A model generated the notes under the pieces. The model was not told where the DNA came from and made no database searches. It saw only the letters and a program-made list of their open reading frames with translations. The position numbers and the translations under genes were made by a program. From Xylographa opegraphella (lineage: Eukaryota), in the NCBI GenBank assembly GCA_022813865.1, contig JALDZX010000004.1:558001-622000 (forward strand): a stretch of 64,000 nucleotides of DNA. The letters are read 5' to 3'. This document shows, piece by piece, positions 1 through 64,000 of this stretch. Every line of letters begins with the position of its first letter. Position 1 is the stretch's first letter.

Positions 1-1462
1 AGGCGTTGGCGGGCGTGAGGAGCGGGTGCAGGATGAGGGTCGGCGTGCCGCGGGAGCCGGGGAGGGGGAGGAGGGCGAGCCCGGTGGGGATCATGTTGGT
101 GGAAGCGGAAGCGGAGGAGGACGGGGCCAGAGGCGCCGCGATGGGGGCGGCGCCCTTGCGGTGGATGTAGACCTCGCGCGTGTGGTCCGCGGGCGGAGCG
201 TTGGGGGCCGAGGGCGGCCAGGAGGTGCGCTCGACGCTGTTGTGGCAGAGGTCGACGACCCTGCGGGCCTGGACGGCACGGCGGGCGGCGCGGACGTCCG
301 CGGTGGGGCAGGGCTTTGGGGCCGCGAGGGCGTCGGTGCGGCCGAGAGCCCAGGCGTCGTGGCCGGGCTCGAGGCAGGCCAGGAAACGCAGGGCGATGAG
401 GTCCCGGTTACAGGCCGCCCACGCGCACGCGCGGTCGTGCTCGGCGAGGTAGGCACGCGCGTGGGGTTCGGCCGCACGCATGCTGGTGGCGGCGTCGCCG
501 GTGCCGCTGTGCCGCTTGAGCACGTCGCTGCCGTAGCCGCGGGAGCCGGAGTGGACGAGGAGGACGACGTCGCCGGCGTGCAGCATGCCGGCCTCGCCGC
601 GGGTGTTGGTGGCTTGCCACGCGCCCGGGAGGACTTCTTCGACGACCTGGATCTCCGCGAAGTGGTTCCCCGCGCCGATGGTGCCGAGGGTGGCGTCCCA
701 TGCTTCGCCCGCGCTGGCGGTTGGGGGTGGTGGTGGGTCGATGGACGAGGAGGCAGCGGTGTGACTCGGAGACGAATCTTCTTCGTCGCTCAGCCACGCT
801 TCTCGGTCGAGCTGAGTCCGCCACGCCCCCTCGAGTCCCCGCAGTTTCTGGGCAACCTTGCGGCCCTTGTCGCCTTCGACGTGGGATGCCGAGAGCGTGG
901 TCTTGTACCAGGCCATGCCGCAGCCGATATCGCCCCCGATCAGCGGCGGGTGGATCCAGCCTTCGGAGACGAAGACGGCGCCGATGGGGAATTTCGTCCC
1001 GGGGTGCAGATCTGGCTGGGCGACGGCGTGGATGATCCCCGGGAGCGTGCGCGCCGTCGTTTCGAGCTGGGTGATGGAGAGAGGGTCGACGTAGGCTTTG
1101 TTGGCCATGATGTAAACTGGGTTACCGAGCGTGAGGGCGTCGAGGTCGGGGCTGATATTTTCGCCGGGGGAAGACTCTTCTTTCTTCGTGCCCACGAAGT
1201 CTTCGCCCGCTGAGATCAGAAGCACCACATCATCCTCCATACATCTCTTCCAATGCGATTCCTCGAGAAGCTCTTGCCCGGTGCTGGCCACAAAAATACG
1301 TGACCCCTTCTTGAGGCGGAGTTTGGACTGCGCAGCCTTCATCACAAGGGAATGACAGGAGCCGGGGTCACTAGGGCTGTAGGACGCAGAGCTGGGGATC
1401 AGGAGCGGACATTTTTGAGACCGATTGCTGTTCAGAGCCAAGGTGACACGTGTAGAAGGCAT
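1..1462 (-). CDS. rtcB: RtcB-family RNA ligase (RtcB2 / release-factor-H-coupled type) with N-terminal DCX/ubiquitin-like domain; 3' end runs off the window
   Basis: Manual translation from ATG 1462 is open to position 1 (487 codons, no intron): MPSTRVTLALN...KAAQSKLRLKKGSRIFVASTGQEL...DDVVLLISAGEDFVG...QPDLHPGTKFPIG...IGGDIGCGM...LGTIGAGNHFAEIQ...LLVHSGSRGYG...VDLCHN...YIHRKGAAP...LPGSRG. These are the RtcB motifs in the expected order. Absent from the ORF track because there is no stop in the window. Confidence 0.93.
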   Translation of the reverse strand, partial: MPSTRVTLALNSNRSQKCPLLIPSSASYSPSDPGSCHSLVMKAAQSKLRLKKGSRIFVASTGQELLEESHWKRCMEDDVVLLISAGEDFVGTKKEESSPGENISPDLDALTLGNPVYIMANKAYVDPLSITQLETTARTLPGIIHAVAQPDLHPGTKFPIGAVFVSEGWIHPPLIGGDIGCGMAWYKTTLSASHVEGDKGRKVAQKLRGLEGAWRTQLDREAWLSDEEDSSPSHTAASSSIDPPPPPTASAGEAWDATLGTIGAGNHFAEIQVVEEVLPGAWQATNTRGEAGMLHAGDVVLLVHSGSRGYGSDVLKRHSGTGDAATSMRAAEPHARAYLAEHDRACAWAACNRDLIALRFLACLEPGHDAWALGRTDALAAPKPCPTADVRAARRAVQARRVVDLCHNSVERTSWPPSAPNAPPADHTREVYIHRKGAAPIAAPLAPSSSASASTNMIPTGLALLPLPGSRGTPTLILHPLLTPANA

Positions 1463-2051
1463 GTTTTACAAAGAAGACACCAGAGTGCAGCTCTTGACAG
1501 TGGGGAGAAATTAGGTAGCTCTCGTGCAGCGATGGATAAGAAACTTCCTTTTCAGGTATGTGTGAGAAGCAATAATGAGAAAAACTATACCAGTCTGCAG
1601 GTACAGGTTTATGAGAGATGATGATAGAATCGCAACTATAGAAGTTGTGTTGATTGCACTCAATTTTGAGTCATACCTCAAACACTCAGCCACCACACGT
1701 GCGAAGCGGGATAGTAATTATATCATGAGTTTGTGGACGAAGAAATGCTTCAAATACAAGGTAGGAACTCCGGCACAAGATGGTCAAAGCGATGGATGTT
1801 TCACTTCCTTGGTAGAGATTAGTCTGTGCTCGATGACAGAAGTGAGGTACGTGTCGTGACGAACTTTAGCGTCATAATACATCTTGATATATCCAGTGCA
1901 TCTTATACGAAGATTCGACGTCGCTACAGCAAGACTTCGAACTCCTTCCGAACCCAGTCAACCCATAGAACATCCCATATATACAGAATTCGTTAAGTAT
2001 GCACATCTACCGTATGAACCGCTCTAACAAGTATTTCCAGTCGTTCGTGTT

Positions 2052-4457
2052 TTACCACCCATCTGCTCTGACGCCCTCAATCACCAAGTCGACGCCTTTG
2101 ACTGGGTGCAGGAGAACACCGGGTAAGCACATCCTGCCCTCGCCGGCGAGTTCCTCCTCTTCCCCGCCGTCGTTATCCACCCTGTAGCCCAGCCATCGTC
2201 TCCATAGATTACCCGAAAATCCTGCGTTATAGTACCATGTCGTTCCACGGAAGTTGTGCTGTCTGCTATCACCAAATACACTGGTCCGTGAGCCTCCGCT
2301 GGCGCCGTTTTTACCTCCGTTCATAACACCAGCAAGATAGCTCGTGGGCCAATTACGATCGATAAACACCGGGTGAGGGACATAAACGGCTTTCAGGCCG
2401 TGGTGCAATGCACAGGAGGCGGGCCACATTTCCGAAAACATCGTATGCCGCTGTAGCGCAACTTCTTTGTGCATCGTGACCAGAAGCCGCTTCGATAAGC
2501 GGGAGGCTGTGATGACTGCTGTCCGTCGGGGCGGAAATTTCTCGGTGGTGTTGTAGCCTGTGACATCCTCCGCTAAGATCCAAGGAGTTTCGTCTGGGTC
2601 AAACATAGGATTGAGGGTAATAAGATCTGCCTCTTCCCCAACTCCCCATAAGTATTTATCCTTTTCGTGGCTTGTCGGAGGCACAGGATCATTCTCCGGC
2701 TGATAGACATCCTCCGGTGCCCGAGGGCCCCAGACGGGTGACTCGATCTGTGATTGGGAAGATCCTCCCGGGCCCTGGCCAGCTGGGCCAGGCTTCTTGC
2801 TTGTCCATAGATTATTGGAATTTTGGGCACCCATCTCGCTCTGGACTCGAACCATCTGTTTGAAGTCTTCCCATGAACCATGTACATCTGGAACGTAAAA
2901 CCGAGCGTTCCGCTCCCACAGTCCTTTCCGAGGTTGTGCTTGAGCCCACTTTCGCAGACTGTCAAACAAATGATACCAGTGACCGGTGTAACGCACGTCC
3001 ATCTCCCAGTTCCAGAAGTAGTCGTATTCGGGATGCTTGTGGGCGAAATATTGCATTGGCATGAATGTACTGCGATAGACGCCATGAACTGGAAGATCAC
3101 GGTAGTAGCTCTCGGCTAAACCCCCATAGATGAGACCCATTTGTCGCTCACTCCACAAGGTAGCCATGCCATGAAATTCCCTCGGCAGTGCATTCTCCAA
3201 CGCTCGATTGTAAGTCTCGGGATCCGCCCAAATTGGAAGATTGTCATCTTTGACATGAATTAAGAAATGTAAAGTATATTCTCCGCCCGACCCGAGCGAG
3301 AGCTCCGCGATCAACGATCGCAGATACAAAATATCTTCTTGGGTATACTGAAAGTCCCACCACGTCCGTAATACGAGTGCGGTACGCGGAAGAAGTTTTG
3401 CATTGGCTTCTTGCGTGGTACCATTGCCTGTATTTGAATCCGCTGTGTTTTCTGTGAGAGCCCCGAGTGCCAGATCATCGGACCGTTCAACGAGCATGTC
3501 TTCAAAGGCATCGCCTAGACCACCAGCAGCGGTTTTGAATCGGTGTTTGTTCTTGGCTGCGCACGCTCTTTGTGCCTTGCCCCACTGTACATTGGTATAA
3601 TCCACCTCTTGATCTACACTCCACACGTTCTCCGCACCTTCTCGTTCACCCGCCAATCCTGCTCCGATACCCCCTCTTCGCAGACTATATCCAAACCCAT
3701 ACGGACCGAGCCTCCCATACCGTTCGAAGCACATAGTGTCCAACAATCCCACTGTCCGATATGAACCCATCACGGCGTCTGGCTGACCACGAGGCACTCC
3801 CATGTATGTGTACACCTTCGGCACCCGGACTGTCTCCTGTAGATCGAGAAAGCACTCGCCTACGTGACCATACTCGAGTTGGTATGCGGAGGAGTTGTAG
3901 TCGGGGTATGGACTGAATGGTATGCTTGGAGGAGAGGCGCGGGCAGTCACCGTTGAGTTGCTGACACCAACCAGGCTGGGCTCTGCATCGCGAGGATACT
4001 CGGGAATGTTTTCAGCTCTGGCCACCAGAGTCCGTATCCCACCAAAATATCTCTCCAAGAAGTTGAAATTCTCCCATGGAGGCGGTGGTGGAGGTTTGTC
4101 TCTCAGACGTTGCGCGTCTAAGCGCCTCGACGATACGTAGCTCATCCGGATGAGAGTTAGAATGAACAGGATGACGGAGGCCATTAGCGCCAGACAAAGC
4201 CATCGTACCGTCCGGTTGGGAATTCGGTAGAAGTAGAAGGATTTCATTTTCCGTTCCGAATGTTTGCTACCCAACATTGGCTGATGCGACCCCGATATTT
4301 CTCTTGATGAATGAAGAGAGGAGTGTGCTTCATCGTCCGAGTCGAGAGACGACAACTGCGGATCAAAGTCTTCCTTCTCGAGATCGCGCGCGTTGCCCAC
4401 GTCGTAATGCTCATCATCGTCCGCTCCGTAGGATGCTCGTCTTCGTGAGCCCCGCAT
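2052..4457 (-). CDS. DUF3405-family type II membrane protein (glycosyltransferase-like)
   Basis: Single ~801-aa ORF from ATG 4457. One N-terminal TM helix (WLCLALMASVILFILTLI), then YDYFWNWEMDVRYTGHWY, ASRLS, SEMWPASCALHHGLKAVYVPHPV and LLHPVK motifs typical of DUF3405. Confidence 0.85.
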   Translation of the reverse strand: MRGSRRRASYGADDDEHYDVGNARDLEKEDFDPQLSSLDSDDEAHSSLHSSREISGSHQPMLGSKHSERKMKSFYFYRIPNRTVRWLCLALMASVILFILTLIRMSYVSSRRLDAQRLRDKPPPPPPWENFNFLERYFGGIRTLVARAENIPEYPRDAEPSLVGVSNSTVTARASPPSIPFSPYPDYNSSAYQLEYGHVGECFLDLQETVRVPKVYTYMGVPRGQPDAVMGSYRTVGLLDTMCFERYGRLGPYGFGYSLRRGGIGAGLAGEREGAENVWSVDQEVDYTNVQWGKAQRACAAKNKHRFKTAAGGLGDAFEDMLVERSDDLALGALTENTADSNTGNGTTQEANAKLLPRTALVLRTWWDFQYTQEDILYLRSLIAELSLGSGGEYTLHFLIHVKDDNLPIWADPETYNRALENALPREFHGMATLWSERQMGLIYGGLAESYYRDLPVHGVYRSTFMPMQYFAHKHPEYDYFWNWEMDVRYTGHWYHLFDSLRKWAQAQPRKGLWERNARFYVPDVHGSWEDFKQMVRVQSEMGAQNSNNLWTSKKPGPAGQGPGGSSQSQIESPVWGPRAPEDVYQPENDPVPPTSHEKDKYLWGVGEEADLITLNPMFDPDETPWILAEDVTGYNTTEKFPPRRTAVITASRLSKRLLVTMHKEVALQRHTMFSEMWPASCALHHGLKAVYVPHPVFIDRNWPTSYLAGVMNGGKNGASGGSRTSVFGDSRQHNFRGTTWYYNAGFSGNLWRRWLGYRVDNDGGEEEELAGEGRMCLPGVLLHPVKGVDLVIEGVRADGW

Positions 4458-6590
4458 CACCACAACCTCACCACGTCAAGATGGGCGTGTGTAGCCCACT
4501 GTCTGCATACCTTGTGGTGCAGACTGGATACGGGGCAACGATTGCAAGGCAATCAATCCGAGGTGATTGCCGCAGATGATGCACCGTGATTGATATGTCT
4601 CGCTCTCGTAAGTACTATGAGACCAAGTATGTACAATGAAATGGAGCAAATAGCAGAAAGCGGGTTGCCCTAGATGGATGCAGCGAGCGTGAAGTTGATC
4701 AGCTGCTTTGCTCCTTATCGTTGGCGTTGTTGAGGATGAGACTTTGCCCGGAAGTCGGCGGCATTTTCGCCCGGGTGGGACAGAATTCATGCCTAAAGTA
4801 GTCAGGGACAAGGGGAGAGTGAGTGTTTCCATCCACGCTTCTTCTCTGCTTCCATGGCAGTCGTTTGATTAAAGCAGGCTGCCACTGTTTCACCGGAAGA
4901 ATAAAGCTTCACTCGGTGGAATGGTGTAACCTAGACTACCTATATGGTGAAGAAGTGGCATGGGAAGAGAATGCTCACGCGGGTTGTTTGTTGGTGGCTT
5001 ATGCGGATTACATCCTGGGAGGATTCAGGGGAGGAGCCGTCGGGACTTTTGGTAGACAGACAATGACAGACAGCCAGTGCCTGTTCTGTTTGGTCTATCC
5101 TCGTTATTCCTCAACGTGCACTCGGAACAGATAGAATACATGGGTGACTGCACTATATATACTATCCTGAATTCATAGCATGTCAGGATTCTCATTGGCG
5201 GATATATTGTCTCCACAGCCAGTCCTCAATCGGCTTCGTAACACTGCCGTATCGCCCCGTTTGGGTCTTTGAGCTCTGATGGCTCCAAGCTGTAGACTCA
5301 GCCAAGTGCACTCAATGCACCTGTCGGCACACTCTCGCATACCTCATGCTGGGTCGCCCGGGGACGAAAGGTCCATGAATGAGGCACTTCCACGTACGCC
5401 CGTGCACTGAAGCTGCAGTGGCGCGCGATGGGATATCCAGCAGCGAGGCAGCGTGCAGCGAAGAAGCGGTGTCGGACTGGAACTGTGGGTCGAAGTGATC
5501 TCCCGTCCATTCTCCCTATTACGAAGTCGGTGTTCCAAACGATCTACCGGGCTGCAGCCGGGAAGGAAACACTCTCAATACCACCTAATACCGCCATTTG
5601 AGCGCTCCTCACGCCACATCGTGACCCCCCGCAGCCGCCGACAGCACGTGAGGTGCGCTGTCACGAGCAGATGCCCGGTTTTCCAACACGGCCAAGAGAT
5701 AGACTGATAAAATGAATACCTCGTCGCTGTTTCGTGACCTGAAGATTGGCATCCAGCTCGGAAGTCACAGTCAAAAGGTATACTTATTGTGCGTCTTGCT
5801 TTTAGCGTGCGTGAAGACTCAACGTCAATCCATCCATTCCACGATCACTTCTTGCTGCCCATCGTGAACAAGCGCGTCTTTTATCCTTTGCAGCTGGCTT
5901 CGGTCATAGTTGTGTCAGTGGCTCCGCCGGCTTCTCTTATCCTGGCCCCTGCTGGCCCTTGTACCTGACTTAATCGACCTGACATCCCCTCGTGCTGTAT
6001 CTTTCGTCTTCAAGACCCAAGTCACCACGGCCTCGCTGAGTGCAATTGATTGAGAAGTCCATTGAAATATCGACCGTGGCTGTCAGCACATCACCGCAGT
6101 AGCGACAGCAGGTGGGGCCAACTGCACCGGAAATCTCACGCTCTCAGTCACCGATTTGCTCACTGCTCACTTCCACGAGCCTCCCTTTGCATTCACCAAC
6201 CGGATCCTCTTCCGTTCTGCTCCAACGTCCATCTGACATCACACCCAGCTCCTCTACCGTCACACCCACCTTTCTTACCTGGCAGGACCTGTGTTCCACT
6301 TCAGCTGCTTCGGATCGGCAATTTGTCAGAAACAAACACACGCTTTGGACCGTCGACCTTCGTACTTAAAACCGGTCTGTCTCTAGTGAGGCGCGGAAGG
6401 AAGAGTTCAACTCTGTCGAGAACGGGAGCTGGCCGTGGGATTTTTACCGTCCCCTCAGACCCAGGTACTTCCATCACTCTTGGAACTCCTCTAACACAGG
6501 CCACAGGCATTGCCCCAAAAAGTACTCTGGCACAAGCTAAGCTCGAACATACCCCTCTCCCTTATAAGCTGCCCAGCCATAAGATTGACC

Positions 6591-42960: not shown

Positions 42961-45461
42961 ATGACTCAAAACTCGAAGATCAAAGAGTTTCCGGACATAG
43001 GGTCGAAGCTCACCGCACCAACCAAGAAGTCGCTATTCGAACGACAAAAGGCCGAAGCCGAAGCCAAGCGGCATAGAGAGCAGCAGGAAACAGCTGCTGT
43101 GTATGAAGATTTCGTAAAGTCTTTCGATGACGTGGATGGCGATGCAGTGTCGGGCTCCGGTGGTACGCTCGGCGGCCCCACGGGGCTCTTTGGCGGACCC
43201 TCGAAGCGACATTTCAGTGGGCCTCCTGCCGGTGGCGGAGGTCGCGGAGGGATAGGCACCGGTCGTGGGAGCAGTGGACCGGGGAGTCTGGGGCCGCCAC
43301 CATCGTCGCTATCGCGGAAACGAGCGTTCGATGGGACTCCGTCGTCTGGCAGAGACTCTAGCCAGGGTTTGTTCGCTTTTGAGGATTCGGTGGCCGGATC
43401 GCTGGACACGAAAACCGCTTTTCAAACGTCGGACGATGAGGAGGAGAAGACTGGGCGGAGCAGAGCGCACGACAGAGCGGCGCCGAAGCCTACGATGCAT
43501 TTGTCCTCACTTCCACCGGGTACGTCCCCAGCTGTAGTCAAGTCTATTCTGCCTCCAGTACTGCAGGTCGATGCCGTGCGTCTACTCCCTCCCACCGGAT
43601 CTTCTATGGAGCGTCGATCACTATCGGCCATTGTCACTTTGGCCAAGGATACGCCAGCTATAGATATCGATACTGCGGTCAGTGCCTTGCAGAACAAGTA
43701 TCTGGGCTGGGGGTTCTATCTTTCTCTATCCCGACACCTGTCTTCTGCAGCGATTGGCTCAGGCATGCCAGCACCCACCGGACTCTCCTCCACTTCGTCG
43801 TTGCCCTTCGGTGCAAAGCCCATACCACCAACGCCGGGTGGCGGCTTTTCTCGAGGCCTACCAACAAGCTCCCACCGTGGTGGATACGCCCCGCCATCCT
43901 CATATGTGACAGCGAATTCAGGGCCGTTCGGACGCGGGCCTCCACCCGTGCAGGTCAACGTCGCCCCACCAGCCGATCTGAAACAACTCAAGCTCATCCA
44001 CAAGACACTCGAGGCCCTGCTGACGCACGGTCCGGAGTTCGAGGCCCTCCTCATGAGCAGGCCGGCTGTCCAGAAGGAAGAGAAGTGGGCCTGGCTGTGG
44101 GACGCCCGCAGCGCCGGCGGGATCTGGTACCGCTGGCGGCTCTGGGACCTCTTGACGGGCGCCCAGCAGCGCATAAAGGCAGGCCGCACCCGCAACAGCG
44201 ATGCATCGCAGTACGTCTTCGACGGCGGCGCCACGTGGGCGGCGCCGGAGAGGGTTCTCCCGTTCGAGTACGCCACCGCCCTGCACGAGTTCGTGTCCGA
44301 CTCCGAGTACGACTCCTCGGACGACGACGACTCCGGCGACGAAGGCCGCCGCCGCCACCAGCACTACCAGGGCGGCGCCCCGCCGCCGGAAGGCATGCTC
44401 GGCGTCATCGACAACGACGCGCAGTCGTACCTCAACCCGCTGCAGAAAGCCAAGCTCGTCCACCTGCTCGCCCGCCTGCCGACGTCGAACGCCAAGCTCC
44501 GCCGGGGCGACGTCGCGCGCGTGACCGCCTTCGCGATCCAGCACGCCGGCGAGGGCGCCGAAGAGGTCGTCGACCTCATCACCTCGAACGTGCACACGCC
44601 CTTTGCCTTCACGAGCGCGAACCCAGAGCACAGACCTAGCGCCGACGCTGCCAAGTCGGACGACGAAAACCCCAACCCCAGCGCCGACGACGCGCCCAAA
44701 CCGCCCGAGCACGAAGACCCCTCGCCCGCCAAACTCGTCGCCCTGTACACCATCTCCGACATCCTCTCCTCGAGCTCCACCTCGGGCGTGCGCCACGCAT
44801 GGCGCTACCGACAGCTCTTCGAAGCCGCGCTCGCGCGGCGGCAGACGTTCGCGCACCTGGGCCGCCTCGACAAGGCGCTAGCGTGGGGCCGGCTGCGGGC
44901 GGAGAAGTGGCGGCGCAGCGTGCTGGCCGTGCTCGGCCTGTGGGAGGGCTGGTGCGTCTTCCCTGCCGCAGCGCAGGAGGGCTTCGCGGCCGCGTTTGCC
45001 AATCCGCCGCCGACGCGGGCGGAGATGGCGGAGATGGAATTGGTGGCTGGGGAGGCGGGTGTGGTGGTGGAGAGGGCCGGGGGGGGGGGAAGTCGAAGTG
45101 GAAGACTGTGGAGGAGAAGGGGGGTGGGCGGGGCGTGGGAGGTGGGGAGGGCGCGGTGGAGGCGATGGATGTGGATGTGGATGTGGATGTGGATGGCGAG
45201 CCAATGGCCGAGGAGGACGTGGATGGGGAGCCGATGGCCGAAGACGAGGACGAGGCCGACGAGGCCGACATGGACGCGGAGCCGATGGACGAGGACGTCA
45301 GGCCCGACGCGCAGGCCGGGTCGCCGATCGAGGGTGCGCGCCACTCTGCTCCTGCACTCGCGGAGCCGGGCGCGGGCGCCGGGGAGCGGACACTGCTGCC
45401 AGGAGGGATGGGACGCCGACCGAAGGCGGAAGACATGTTTGCCGATTCGGAGGGCGAGTGA
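42961..45461 (+). CDS. U2 snRNP-associated SURP-motif protein (SR140/U2SURP-like; RRM-like, SURP, CID); apparent frameshift at a G run
   Basis: KSLFERQKAEAEAKR, AVYEDFVKSF, HGPEFEALLM..YRWRLW, KLVALYTISDIL, WGRLRAEKWRR..LWEGW. The natural tail KSKWKTVE..DVDGEPM..RRPKAEDMFADSEGE* lies in another frame after G11 at 45079-45089. Confidence 0.88.
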
Positions 45462-46152
45462 GTCGGGCGCGGTTTTGTGGGTGGGGGTGGGATGTTTGGG
45501 TCGCGAGTGGGGAGGGCGGAGAGGTCGGTGCTGCAACGAGGGAAGGGGGGTGGAGGGGTTTACGAGTTGGGGACCTGTGATTGATTGATTGCTCGGGAAC
45601 TGGGTGCGAGAAGACCGGGGGGGAAAGAAAGCGAGTGTAGAGTGTAGAGCGTAGAGCGTACCAACTAGGGAGTAAGGGACCGCGAGTATTATCCGAAACG
45701 CGCAGTCTTCTTCTCCACATCATGCAAAAAGGCTGGCTGGCTTGCATACTATACTATACTATACCATCCCGCACCGGGGTCATCAACGTCAAGGCATAGA
45801 AGAAGTATGGCGATCACATGCCTGCAACCAGCATGCACCAGCGACACCGACCCGACCATCAAGGAACAGCACGGGACCGACCACTGACTGACCGACCAAG
45901 CGAGGAACTCAATCAATTTCTGTACACCGCAGGTTTCAAAAGAGGAAAAACAGGGTGGGGAGACCGGATGAGCACGGTGCATCAACCGTCCCCTTTCGCG
46001 CACTCGCTCGCTCATCGCCCCAGCCTTCCAATTTCAAACTCCGTGCCCGAAAGCCCGACTCGGGGTATTGATTCTTTTACGCAGCCGTGCTCCGCACGTC
46101 GGCAACCAGGCACGGGGATACCACTTGCACCCCCCGGCCCCCCCACCAAGGC

Positions 46153-59651: not shown

Positions 59652-62600
59652 TTAGATCTCCTCTGCATGCTGAGTGTGCATTTCTCCTTCCGCTTCAGCT
59701 TCTTTTCTTACCAATGCATCCCCATCTCGTTGTGCTAAAGCATTCTCGTACGCAGTAAGTTTCACTGGCGCATTTGAACTTGTATCCATGTTGATAATCT
59801 TCTCACCCGTCTGGACCCCCGTATTCACTATTTCCGAAGAACTACCAACGGAAGTGGACGCGGCCTCCGCATTATGAGCGACGTCGTCTAGAGTGTGAGC
59901 GCTAGTAGAAGGGGAAGCAGAAATCTCATTTGTGCCGTCCAATGCTTGGTGGGGAATGACATTCTGCTGGCTTGCTGCTTGCTGTGTTTCTGATACTGTA
60001 GTTGACTTTTCTGTCGTGGGTGCATGGCCTTCCTCGTGTGAGTGTGGGGCCTCAACCACATCCTTCGTGCCTTCGTGCTCTGTGTCAGAGATACTTGGGG
60101 CCAAATCAGCTGTGGCAGGCTCCTGCCTATGCATAACGACCAGTCCGTCGCCGCCCTCGGGAGACACCTGCCAAATAGTCCAGGGTTCGGCCATCTCCAA
60201 CTTTGATACAGTTGGTTTCACCTCACTTGCGGCAGCCGGGGAGACAGCGGGCTTTCGACGGACTGGACCTTTAGCACGTCCTTTCCTTGCATCTGTAAGA
60301 GGTACCTTATCTTCATCCTTGTCGGCCTCTACGGTCTTTTCTCGAATCTTCGATGGAGCATGCGGACCTAGTTGGAGACGTTTATCGAGATCGGACATGA
60401 AACCTGCTTTTAAAGCTGCTATCTTATTGCCAGCTGGGCGAGCGGGAAGAGCAGGCTTAGGCCTAGTAGCTGGTGGCGGAGAGATGATATTCCTAGCTGT
60501 GGACTGATCCTCATTACTGCCTACGGAATTTGCAGACGTTGTTTTTGATAATGGAATACTTTCTGACGAATCTCGGGCCACGGGTTTCGCTGGTCGAGCA
60601 GGTACTGGTGGCTTTGCTCGATCAGGTAGAATTGGCTTGCGAAATTCTGTAGGAGATTGTTGCTCGCTCTCTATGTGTAATGACTGTCCAGGATCTTTTG
60701 AAAGCGGAGAGGGCATGGTGACCGCTGGTTGTACTTTATTCTTCTGCGGCCGGGCAGGTATCGATGGTGCAGCTTGGCCTGTAGAGATTTGAGCCTCGTG
60801 TGCATATTTTGGGTTCGTAGGCCTAGGCGGGATCAATGGCTTTTCTAGAACAGGAGCGCCGGCGGTAGCTCCGTCTCTGTCTTGGTCGCTAACAATATGA
60901 CCATCAACAGGCCTTCCTGAGGTTTTCACAATGGCGCCAGCAATGGCGCCTTCATCAGTCGGACTTTGTAGCTCATCCGCCTGTGGTTCCCCAACGGTAG
61001 TCTGAAGGTAGGCACTATCAGGGGAGTCCTCCCAGATATCCCTACTCGGGAAGCGTTGCTTCAATCCAGGTCTCTGCATTTCGTCGCGGATATGTGGCTT
61101 AAAATTAGATCTGGCCCACCTTTCCTCCTTTGGAAGCAGCTCTGCCTTCCCTTCCTCACTAATTTCGCCTTTCCTTGCAGCTTCCGCTTCTGGAGTTTCA
61201 AATACATCAGATGCTGTCGGTAGGTCTTGACTTTCCTTTTCAACAATCGGTTCCGGAGTTGACACTGTTGCTTCTAGCTGCAGGCTGTTAGGAGTATCTT
61301 CCCAAATATCTTGGCTTGGAAATCGTTTCTTCATGTCTGGGCGATGCTTAAAACGATCGGCAGGACTTTGCGGTTTGCCTAACTTGCCATCGTCGTCCGG
61401 GAATAGCGGCTCGTATTCATCTACATCCTCGAGAGGTGTATGCATCTCGTCTCGCTCATCATGCGAGATGAACTTTGTAAGTCCGGGTAAGGAGCCATGA
61501 ATACTGCCCGGTCTGCTTGCGGGTCGACTACTAGCAGCACTACCAGACACGCTACCATGACGACGCCCACTTTGATAGGATGGTGGGAACTCAGAGTCAA
61601 TCCCAGCGTAGTAAGCGCTTCCTCGTCGCTCTTGGGCGGGTGCAACTGCCGGCTGTAAAAATTCCACTCCAGGCTCCTTCGCAACTTCATCTGAAGCCAA
61701 AATAGGAACGCCATATCCGGTTTCTTCTATCCATCCACCTTGTGCTTCAGTGTTGCCCCCCTGAGGTCCAAGATCTTCAGTCGGAGGATCATAACCATTT
61801 CCAAGAAGTTTACTCGTACGAATGCCTGGAGCATCAATATGGATCACATCATCTTCCTCTGTTTCACTTTCCAATGCTTGCTCTTGCGAAGACCTCAGCC
61901 CTGAATGCGAGTCTCTGGTCTTGTCAAAGTCCTCCTTGCCTGAAATGTCAATCGGAAAGCTTGATTTCCGTAGTGGAGACTCCATATGTGTCTGAGAGTG
62001 CGAGTGTGTTTTGTTGTGGTAAGGACCTGACTGAGGTCGCGGTGAGTTGAGTCGCGATGCATACTCTTCAGAAGCAAGATAGCCGATTTGTTCATCAGGA
62101 CGTGCCACGACATTGGGAGAAGTGCCTAGTCAATCTTTAGAAAGAGAATTTAGAATCTTGCCAAATTGATAAAGAACATACCAAATCCAGCACCGCGGCT
62201 TGCGGTGTCTCTGACGATTTTGTTCAAATCCTCACTACTCATCGCCCATTCTCCCCTGCTCCCACCGATCCCAGGGCCATATTGCCCTGATTCTTCTCGC
62301 ACAAGAGCATCGGGGTGCTTGTCATACCATGCTTTCTCAAATTTATCAGGAACTGCCAGACCGTGTCCGTGTAAGCCATAACTGCCAGGCGGGCCTTGAA
62401 AGACCTCTTTTGCGCTACTTCTGCGTCCATGATGTCTAGGCCTACTTCCATCGTTATGGAATCCAATCCCAGAAGGGTGATTCTGCGTATAAGGCGAAGG
62501 CGACGGAGCCTGCACGTCTCCAGCGTTGGGATACATTGGCACTCGTTGGCCAATTTCGGGTATTCCGTGCTCGTCATCGACTTGTGTAGAGCTCGGTCGT

Positions 62601-63199
62601 TCAGTGGATGCAGAAGACTGTATGCTCGAGAAGCTCTCTCTGGGTTTCAAAGGTCTTGCGTACGGATCCTTGTCGTCCACCTGTAATGGTGTAGCTGCCT
62701 TGCCAATTCCCATGGCGGCAGCTTGAGAAGAATCTGTGCGAGTGACAGTCGCAATCCGCGCTTTTGCACCAGAGGTGGAAAGTGATGGCTTCGGTGCGTG
62801 GAGAGGGAGATCATTGCCAACATTCCTAGTTTGTGTAGGAGAGCCAGCCTCGGAAGTAGTTCCAGACTCCTCGTATGCCAACTCCGCATACTCGTTTCCT
62901 TCTTGACCAATGGAAGGGAGACTGACACTGGGCGGCCTTGCTGGCAAGCTCATACTCGAATTCGATATATTTGGTCCATCGCTGCTGTGTAGCCGAGTAT
63001 TCATGTTGCTGTGATTTATAGCAAAAGGAGTTTCATTGAGAGGAGATCGAGCGAAGCTGTCTCTGTGAGGTGATTCAGACCGATCTGCGCGACGCTGAGC
63101 AGGTCGCGGCGGAACCTTTGGCGGCTCCAGCATTGTAGTGGTTGGCGCCTGAGGCACTTGGGCACGATTCGGACGTGGAGGGATCTGAGGCATTGCCAT
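59652..63199 (-). CDS. AIM21: Aim21-like Pro-rich actin-cytoskeleton protein, 2 coding exons
   Basis: IPEIGQRVPMYPNAGDVQAPSP, PPGSYGLHGHG..FEKAWY.KHP, WAMSSEDLNKIV, PILASDEV, KRFPSQDIWED and KIAALKAGFMSDL..LTDARKGRAKGP. Intron about 62128-62180. Confidence 0.85.
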
Positions 63200-64000
63200 T
63201 TTTGGCTCGTGTGCTATCCGACCTATGATAATGGTGAGTATCCGGCACTTCAACACCGGTTACAAAGTCGTCATCAAGAAGCAAAGCATCGCGATGAGCA
63301 TGATATGAGAGTCCGCTATGACAATAAGAGTAATATCTCAGCACAATCGGCGGTCATATCAATTGGTGACTCTTGTACATTCTAGCCGTTGTTATGATAC
63401 ATATAACAGCACTTCGCAATGCCAGAGACTTTCACGGACGGAACTCCCATTGCGTCTGGCAGTTCTTGGGGGATGAATTGCAAGAGTATTCTCCAATGAA
63501 AGGGCTAGGATGCAACGAACAGGCCCTGGGGATGCTCAAGCACTTACCTTGGGATTTGGAGAAGCCTAGCACCACCTCCCTGATGTCTGGCAGACAGTAT
63601 AAGAAGAAGACTCAAGGCAAGAAAGACGTTCAACCGGAAAGTTTGAGGGGCTCGTCCGAGGTCATTCCTTTGATGAAGGTTTCAAGGTTCTGGCTCCCCT
63701 CGGTTCCTGTGCAGGGGACCGATCGATGACGATCCAGCCTAAAACTTAAGCGGAAAGCCCCCAAACAAGGGCAGGCTTAGGGAGGATGGGCCTCACGTTC
63801 TCGACAAAGACGGAATCCGCAATCGTACACATTATATCCTACGGGATTCACACAATCGTGAATAGCCTTTGCAAGGAACTGGCCTGTAAAACATTCCTTG
63901 TTGAGATCTCCTGGTGAGGGAATTAGGTATGGTAGGTACATACCTACCACAGTATTCGACTCACCGCCAAAAAGGGCATGGTTGCCTGCACAAGCAAAAA

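Follow-up and report, generated by a model that had tools for sequence, protein, structure and literature searches.

An RtcB2-like RNA ligase gene with an added N-terminal domain in the fungus Xylographa opegraphella

Why would an ascomycete keep an RNA ligase of bacterial type when splicing in fungi and plants is the task of Trl1 (PMC9304027; bioRxiv 10.64898/2026.05.26.727988)? The question arises at the left edge of a 64,000-nucleotide stretch of DNA from Xylographa opegraphella (assembly GCA_022813865.1, contig JALDZX010000004.1, positions 558,001 to 622,000 of the forward strand; hereafter, the window), where an open frame on the minus strand (2..1462) covers roughly four fifths, from the start, of a gene for an RtcB2-like RNA ligase. 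This is almost certainly a gene derived from bacterial RtcB2. We propose that its product is an RNA ligase with a stand-alone repair role, a statement to which we assign, as a whole, a probability of roughly 55%. Databases already contain the family, and a role in repair has been predicted for it in print; the one detail for which we found no published description, in a literature search that left most subscription journals uncovered, is a eukaryote-specific beta-grasp domain at the N terminus of the protein.

Reading frame, active-site motifs, and family

Starting with the ATG at position 1462, the frame runs through 487 codons, contains neither an intron nor a stop, and is truncated at the left window edge; it is colinear with full-length homologues of 541 to 625 amino acids. 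A first-pass annotation, made from the sequence alone, had bounded the gene at position 1130. The frame instead reaches the ATG at 1462, and the ∼115 extra N-terminal residues gained in this way are kept in all 22 aligned fungal homologues. The same annotation had described an intronless minus-strand frame with seven motifs, and we located all seven within the 487 codons; a premature stop, which it had named as counting against its claim, does not occur over the part of the frame inside the window.

The motifs were placed with two alignments: A1 comprises the window protein and 22 fungal homologues (23 fungal sequences), and A4 comprises 38 sequences, of which 25 are eukaryotic and 13 are bacterial RtcB2. 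The RtcB catalytic domain (residues 116 to 487, C-terminal end incomplete; 2..1117, on the minus strand like every feature of this gene) was delimited by PF01139, NF007153, and a structural model of an orthologue. It begins with PDLHPG (residues 150 to 155; 998..1015), whose D, L, and H are invariant in the 38 eukaryotic and bacterial sequences. Human RTCB has GFDINCGV where the window protein has GGDIGCGM (residues 176 to 183; 914..937), and the D and C of the human motif stand opposite Asp178 and Cys181; His267 of GTIGAGNHFAE (residues 260 to 270; 653..685) aligns with the His of human GAGNHYAE, and His304 of VHSGSRG (residues 303 to 309; 536..556) aligns with that of human IHSGSRG. CHN follows (residues 406 to 408; 239..247), its His407 and Asn408 invariant in the 23 fungal sequences and its first residue W, Y, or C in relatives. 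HRKGA (residues 434 to 438; 149..163) is conserved in both alignments, and PGSRG (residues 468 to 472; 47..61) was placed by alignment within the LPGSRG at residues 467 to 472. The motifs around Asp178/Cys181, His267, His304, and His407 correspond to those of human RTCB and are kept across the 38 sequences, and the Asp/Cys/His set that had been called intact is indeed complete as far as the window reaches. The assignment of individual residues to metals is presumed here to be that of the RtcB structure literature.

The guanylated His had been expected past the left edge. In A1, the window protein stops at column 535 and the His of the AHGAGR motif stands at column 546, which agrees with that expectation and puts the residue 11 codons beyond base 1. 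AHGAGR was found in 116 of the best 120 homologues listed, and the remaining 4 entries are short (416 to 492 amino acids). The cut of the frame is the edge of the window, and the DNA itself continues leftward: a contig of another assembly, whose run is probably the source of the window, matches positions 1 to 4600 with 0 differences and reaches 276 bases further left. This contig is not independent support because its run may be the window's source, but it spans the ligase gene and its neighbor and therefore speaks against a mis-join between them; evidence of a chimeric contig was among the outcomes that the first-pass annotation had named as contrary to its claim.

Residues 137 to 365 match the Pfam family RtcB (PF01139) well beyond chance, with an E-value of 5.9e-38 and a score of 131.6 bits, where the cut-off is 27. 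Among NCBIfam models, NF007153 ranks first (195.3 bits; residues 117 to 365) and TIGR03073, "release_rtcB" (159.3 bits), second; both are models of the short RtcB proteins adjoining prfH in bacteria. Human RTCB, the best relative with a solved structure, scores only 62.9 bits, versus 195 for the RtcB2 model. The closest full-length orthologue, from Xylographa parallela (74% identical, 625 amino acids), gave an AlphaFold2 model with a mean predicted local distance difference test (pLDDT) value of 86; it is this model, and not one of the window protein, that matches the structure of RtcB with GMP and Mn (4dwq_A; E 1.6e-24, template-modeling [TM] score relative to the target of 0.57 to 0.61) and 8odp_A (E ∼1e-24).

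Relatives and the eukaryotic clade

A protein search returned 2613 proteins at an E-value of ≤0.001 among 8000 scored candidates, the best at 8.5e-229. The relatives are described here from the best 120 of these 2613 matches, which cover 86 to 100% of the query at 50 to 75% identity. The closest among the matches listed are Xylographa proteins (71 to 75% identity), followed by other Lecanoromycetes (Candelina is also among the hits) and many Dothideomycetes at 50 to 66%. Many of the closest listed matches come from lichen-forming fungi, which reflects the query's own lineage. The first-pass annotation had supposed that similar fungal entries exist in databases, and many do, under the name "release factor H-coupled RctB family protein"; this name or "3'-phosphate/5'-hydroxy nucleic acid ligase" is carried by several of the listed matches, and the former by relatives from Stemphylium, Cucurbitaria, Morchella, Spizellomyces, and others. 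A profile of distant members added Pezizomycetes (Morchella, Tuber, Rhizina, and Maublancomyces), the chytrid Spizellomyces, and the lycophyte Selaginella moellendorffii. The S. moellendorffii gene LOC9649069, on a contig of 1.13 Mb, encodes the same architecture of N-terminal domain and RtcB2-like ligase and groups in the eukaryotic clade described below.

Bacterial relatives were sampled from one genome per prokaryotic species. Two fungal-type motifs led to 265 stretches, of which 131 encode relatives, and the best 80 were kept: 19 short forms and 61 long, canonical RtcB proteins. A fungal query scores 86 to 164 bits against the short forms and 64 to 100 bits against the long ones, so the ranges overlap at the margin. 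NF007153 is the best model for all 18 intact short forms, and 17 of these score above at least one of the two RtcB2 cut-offs, the locus L024 being above neither. At 15 of the 18 short loci, the next downstream gene matches the PrfH model TIGR03072, above the cut-off in 12 cases and below it in 3 (L013, L018, and L024). At L007, L010, and L020, where a single neighboring frame per locus was tested, no TIGR03072 match was found. Several of the bacterial loci have peculiarities of their own. The rtcB2 gene of L010 (3941-5104), from a metagenome-assembled genome (MAG) of Planctomycetota, is out of register with all its relatives over ∼60 mid-protein residues, a part in which it lacks the HN and HRKGA motifs, and its branch is the longest of the tree; a frameshift in the gene or an error of assembly may account for this. 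In L008, L009, L012, and L032 (MAGs of Neisseriaceae and Cardiobacteriaceae), the PrfH frames measure 231 to 232 amino acids compared with the usual ∼200. The match to the PrfH model is split in two in L008, L009, and L012, suggestive of an insertion, and L009 has an additional 116-codon frame between rtcB2 and prfH.

Our conclusions on phylogeny rest on a careful maximum-likelihood tree, an earlier tree having been a quick version. Its 53 rows comprise 21 eukaryotic, 18 short bacterial, and 14 long sequences; L015 (a 187-residue fragment) and 47 of the 61 long loci were omitted, and no canonical eukaryotic RTCB is among the rows. The 21 eukaryotic rows form a single clade (support 100/99) inside the short bacterial group (97/96), and a 100/100 branch divides the short group, including the window gene, from the long canonical RtcB proteins. 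Placement with canonical RTCB, which the first-pass annotation had named, together with loss of Trl1, as an outcome contrary to its claim, is thus not borne out, either by this branch or by the score of human RTCB.

Within the eukaryotic clade, the window protein pairs with Xylographa (100/99), and Pezizomycetes split off before Dothideomycetes and Lecanoromycetes, as they do in the fungal phylogeny. Because branching at the class level resembles the species tree, the pattern within Pezizomycotina is that of vertical descent. At the base of the clade, the tree leaves Spizellomyces, Selaginella, and one further sequence in no resolved order. The suggestion of an ancient bacterial origin has gained ground in this respect: a single eukaryotic clade with Pezizomycetes basal to Dothideomycetes and Lecanoromycetes fits an old rather than a recent origin. 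The Pezizomycotina sequences also have three inserts (A4 columns ∼444 to 470, 495 to 545, and 640 to 700) that are absent from the chytrid, Selaginella, and bacterial sequences; one of them is Gly rich and predicted to be disordered (residues 529 to 564 of the Xylographa orthologue).

The N-terminal beta-grasp domain

The catalytic core is preceded by a segment of ∼92 residues (residues 1 to 92; 1187..1462) that begins with MPxTRxT and is conserved in 25 of 25 eukaryotic rows of A4, whereas none of the 13 bacterial RtcB2 sequences in that alignment has anything ahead of the core. It is followed by a variable linker (residues 93 to 115; 1118..1186) that is predicted to be disordered, as judged from low pLDDT in the orthologue model (<50 for residues 93 to 112 of the full-length protein) and from poorly conserved alignment columns. 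An AlphaFold2 model of the domain alone, built with 25 sequences, is a beta-grasp fold with a pLDDT of 87.8 and a predicted TM score (pTM) of 0.80; it has strands at residues 3 to 10, 17 to 23, 55 to 58, and 79 to 84 and helices at residues 36 to 47 and 68 to 74. Mitochondrial targeting of the ligase was considered and rejected by inference: the conserved MPxTR leads directly into strand 1 and leaves no room for a presequence.

The model clearly shows a beta-grasp topology, without pointing to one subfamily. The nearest solved folds in a Foldseek search are CIDE-N and doublecortin domains (TM score, 0.59 to 0.64). Drep4 gave the best E-value (1.7e-3; TM score, 0.63), and CIDE-3, DREP3, the CIDE-N domain of FSP27, and the N-DC domain of doublecortin were also found, with ubiquitin at a TM score of ∼0.48. 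The domain matched no Pfam family, including the CIDE-N and DCX models, at an E-value of ≤10, and a search of the ESM Atlas gave no usable match. Its conserved charges, a basic run (KLRLKK..R) and an acidic turn (GE followed by D or E), would suit RNA binding or charge pairing of the CIDE-N/PB1 type.

The domain occurs almost exclusively on this ligase. Searched alone against 1.84 billion representatives, it gave 54 hits at an E-value of ≤0.001, of which 23 were scanned for families: 15 carry RtcB (one below the gathering score), 1 is an ankyrin protein that is probably a chance match, and 7 have no family. Four of these seven are proteins of 290 to 384 amino acids, two of them from chytrids (Irineochytrium and Blyttiomyces), and a search with one of the four added a fifth related protein from Chytridium lagenaria. 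In this set of proteins (P0167, P0169, P0171, P0174, and P0175), the domain precedes a C-terminal domain of ∼190 residues that is unrelated to RtcB, belongs to no Pfam family, and contains the motifs HEWAHA(R/H)F, of the HExxH type, and VDEFQAY(V/I)VE. The nearest ESM Atlas clusters to this C-terminal domain are unnamed phage proteins (score, 0.96), metallopeptidase-like proteins appearing only at 0.83, a mere lead; nothing below an E-value of 0.5 was found among solved structures, and the domain has no counterpart in the 64-kb window. Because the N-terminal domain occurs both on the ligase and on this unrelated chytrid domain, it behaves as a portable eukaryotic module.

Proposed role, alternatives, and known systems

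RtcB enzymes transfer GMP from GTP to a C-terminal His in an Mn-dependent step, pass the GMP on to the 3'-phosphate of an RNA, and join the ends by attack of a 5'-OH. Going by homology, the fungal ligase would follow the same route, from His-GMP through RNA-3'pp5'G to the attack by the 5'-OH. We propose that the window contains the 5' four fifths of a vertically inherited, intact gene from the nuclear genome of a Xylographa-like lecanoromycete and that this gene encodes a putative RNA ligase of the GTP/Mn type, joining 3'-phosphate to 5'-hydroxyl ends, that descends from the RtcB2 branch of bacteria. The enzyme would act alone to reseal breaks with 2',3'-cyclic-phosphate and 5'-OH ends that endonucleases make in structured RNAs of the translational apparatus. 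We rate small-subunit rRNA as the single most likely substrate, although we hold it less likely than not to be the main one. The beta-grasp domain may be a protein-protein (or RNA) docking module that brings the ligase to its target and would take the part played in bacteria by PrfH-assisted access.

Published work provides both the idea and some of its plausibility. Tian et al. (2022; PMC9304027) report 98 RtcB2 proteins in eukaryotes, mostly in fungi and plants, describe PrfH as confined to bacteria, and predict that eukaryotic RtcB2 repairs the 40S subunit because fungi and plants use Trl1. The proposal of the first-pass annotation, RNA or ribosome repair by a fungal RtcB2, is near-identical to that prediction and hence not new as an idea; what stands is that the literature we covered contains no functional test of it. 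RtcB2 from Escherichia coli reseals 30S subunits cut between A1493 and G1494 and does not repair damaged tRNAs (PMC9304027). By itself, the E. coli enzyme repairs 30S and 70S particles cut by colicin E3, with PrfH merely accelerating the reaction on translating ribosomes (PMC13166195); therefore, an RtcB2 without PrfH is workable. Possible sources of damage have been described as well: clusters for zymocin-like ribonuclease toxins occur in many nuclear genomes of Pezizomycotina, the targets of such toxins including tRNA and rRNA, and the yeast toxin PiT cleaves a loop of 18S rRNA (PMC13556262).

Several points weigh against this reading. The assignment to the RtcB2 subfamily, made by the first-pass annotation, has held in that the best models are of the RtcB2 type and the gene is nested among prfH-linked bacterial genes, but the scores stay below the curated cut-offs. 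The window fragment reaches 195.3 bits versus 407 for NF007153 and 159.3 versus 271.8 for TIGR03073, in part because of its truncation; three full-length fungal orthologues also remain below (250 to 299 versus 407 and 202 to 246 versus 271.8). The eukaryotic stem is long (1.48 in the quick tree; 0.46 + 0.38 + 0.36 in the careful one), and with scores below the cut-offs, the substrate specificity may therefore have changed. The bacterial sample behind the tree is biased, having been drawn with two fungal-type motifs, and the careful tree does not resolve the bacterial sister of the eukaryotic clade. The C-terminal ∼125 residues, including the nucleophile His, lie beyond the window, and the intactness of this copy is therefore presumed. 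The fold match of the N-terminal domain is weak, with no Foldseek hit at an E-value of ≤0.001, and is silent on the binding partner. According to Tian et al. (PMC9304027), no toxin that cuts the eukaryotic decoding center is known. Trl1 and human RTCB mend rRNA breaks in vitro (bioRxiv 10.64898/2026.05.26.727988), and therefore a dedicated second ligase is not obviously needed. Finally, our literature search found no report of the activity, substrate, expression, or localization of any eukaryotic member.

The alternative that survives best keeps repair and changes the substrate. The ligase might reseal anticodon-loop cuts made in tRNA by zymocin-like gamma-toxins or anticodon nucleases of competing fungi or bacteria, rather than cuts in rRNA. 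Clusters for zymocin-like toxins are widespread among Pezizomycotina, and tRNA is what most characterized toxins of this kind cleave (PMC13556262), E. coli RtcB shielded yeast from tRNA-targeting fungal ribotoxins (PMC9223846), and the fungal clade has diverged so far from bacterial RtcB2 that its specificity may differ. However, the nearest characterized relative, E. coli RtcB2, leaves damaged tRNAs unrepaired (PMC9304027), and Trl1, which the literature places in fungi, already seals such breaks. We consider this tRNA repair role unlikely. A general function in break repair, in which 3'-phosphates in mRNA, other noncoding RNA, or DNA would be sealed or capped during desiccation or oxidation in lichen fungi rather than in response to a toxin, appears improbable. 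In its favor, tRNA ligases mend many breaks in rRNA and structured RNA and aid survival of oxidative stress (bioRxiv 10.64898/2026.05.26.727988), and many of the closest listed matches are from lichen-forming fungi, although this reflects the lineage of the query; the family is, however, equally present in nonlichen Dothideomycetes, in Pezizomycetes, and in a chytrid, and the bacterial relatives are genes of a conflict system linked to prfH.

Splicing is a still poorer explanation. RtcB enzymes do splice in archaea and animals, and all active-site motifs within the window are retained, so the protein could be imagined as a second splicing ligase, redundant with Trl1 or acting instead of it on tRNA or HAC1 mRNA. 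Yet the gene belongs to the RtcB2 branch and not to that of the long canonical RtcB/RTCB, and the literature gives fungal and plant splicing to Trl1; because fungi use Trl1 for both tRNA and HAC1, splicing of either is unlikely. Among the matches listed, moreover, the only named hits are from Selaginella, a single genus of chytrids, and some classes of fungi, which suggests a patchy distribution, more in keeping with an accessory than with an essential gene. On balance we lean toward repair rather than splicing and regard a second splicing ligase as highly improbable. The G+C content of the frame is unusually high for the surroundings (67.8%, and 82.8% at third positions versus 55% in the neighboring gene) and raised the question of contamination by bacteria, a transfer in very recent times, or a relic in decay. 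This reading is close to refuted and was rejected on phylogeny and context: dozens of named fungi have orthologues of 50 to 74% identity, with class-level branching as in the species tree; the eukaryote-only N-terminal domain is conserved; the 487 codons contain no stop; the flanking genes are fungal; and one contig of another assembly bridges the gene and its neighbor.

The ligase gene sits in an ordinary fungal chromosomal context. A stretch of 42% G+C (1463..2051, minus strand), presumably the promoter region, separates it from the stop of the next gene upstream, which lies on the same strand (2052..4463) and encodes a DUF3405 protein (E 1.1e-221). Further long frames of the window are likewise ordinary fungal genes: a CLC channel, a protein with a Surp module, HMG-CoA synthase, an alpha/beta hydrolase, and Aim21. 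The G+C content of the ligase frame increases along its length, from ∼55% (5' end) to ∼75% (3' end). A 403-codon open frame on the plus strand (2..1213) runs antisense to the ligase gene, most likely as a by-product of the high G+C content of the ligase frame. The most G+C-rich stretch of the window (44001-46000; 66.5%) is inside the 875-codon frame with the Surp module, and two adjacent minus-strand frames at 59652-63256 match positions 1 to 285 and 293 to 718 of the Aim21 model and presumably form one intron-split gene. No RNA run containing the stretch was listed, only a DNA run that may be its source, and this gives no evidence either way on expression.

To return to the repair ligase that we favor, a more far-reaching version of it can be imagined, which we hold to be rather unlikely. 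Eukaryotes might have made the two-gene rtcB2-prfH system into a one-protein device for ribosome repair. The N-terminal domain would dock on stalled or split ribosomes, or on a bound quality control factor, and would thereby replace PrfH, while the ligase would reseal 18S rRNA cut by secreted ribonuclease toxins of competing fungi or bacteria, e.g., zymocin-like gamma-toxins. The occurrence of the N-terminal domain on a phage-like HExxH domain in chytrids would then point to a small toolkit for plugging horizontally acquired conflict enzymes into the translation machinery.

What does the locus mean for the wider picture? The textbook and review claim that fungi and plants dropped RtcB for Trl1 is true of the canonical enzyme only; a second RtcB, of bacterial type, has survived in several classes of fungi, in one or more chytrid genera, and in a lycophyte. 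Should it repair ribosomes, it would be the first dedicated eukaryotic rRNA repair enzyme, and there would then be toxins, so far undiscovered, that cleave the small-subunit rRNA of eukaryotes. The putative docking domain, found in eukaryotes only, offers a concrete handle toward the target of the ligase. The window gene itself is one more, incomplete member of a family already in databases with the same prediction printed.

Canonical RtcB/RTCB (HSPC117) of archaea and animals shares with the ligase the fold, the metal- and GTP-binding motifs, and presumably the three-step chemistry, but differs in forming a separate clade, with ∼20% identity over the structure alignment, and in its context of a tRNA ligase complex, of which there is no sign for the window ligase. 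The CIDE-N and DCX beta-grasp domains, onto which the model of the N-terminal domain superposes with the TM scores given above, are docking modules for protein-protein or protein-polymer contacts; they have no relation to it at the sequence level, and identity in the structural alignments is 10 to 18%.

The closest known system is bacterial RtcB2, encoded in the rtcB2-prfH operon for ribosome rescue and repair of E. coli ATCC 25922 (Tian et al. 2022, Maviza et al. 2022, Shiriaev et al. 2026), which falls on the same branch by hidden Markov models and tree. It has PDLHPG, GTIGAGNHFAE, and PGSRG in common with the window protein, and both have a compact core that lacks the extra segments of canonical RtcB. 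In contrast to the bacterial operon, the window gene is not accompanied by prfH within the 64 kb of the window (best tblastn E-value for a prfH-like frame, 0.09). The fungal proteins share ∼30 to 39% identity with bacterial RtcB2, add the N-terminal beta-grasp domain and the three Pezizomycotina inserts, and belong to hosts with an 80S ribosome. The window gene thus joins the 98 eukaryotic RtcB2 proteins of Tian et al. as one more member with an identical predicted role. Beyond what the main text of that paper reports, we describe the domain architecture, a tree with a single eukaryotic clade, and a range that extends over a chytrid, Selaginella, and three classes of Pezizomycotina.

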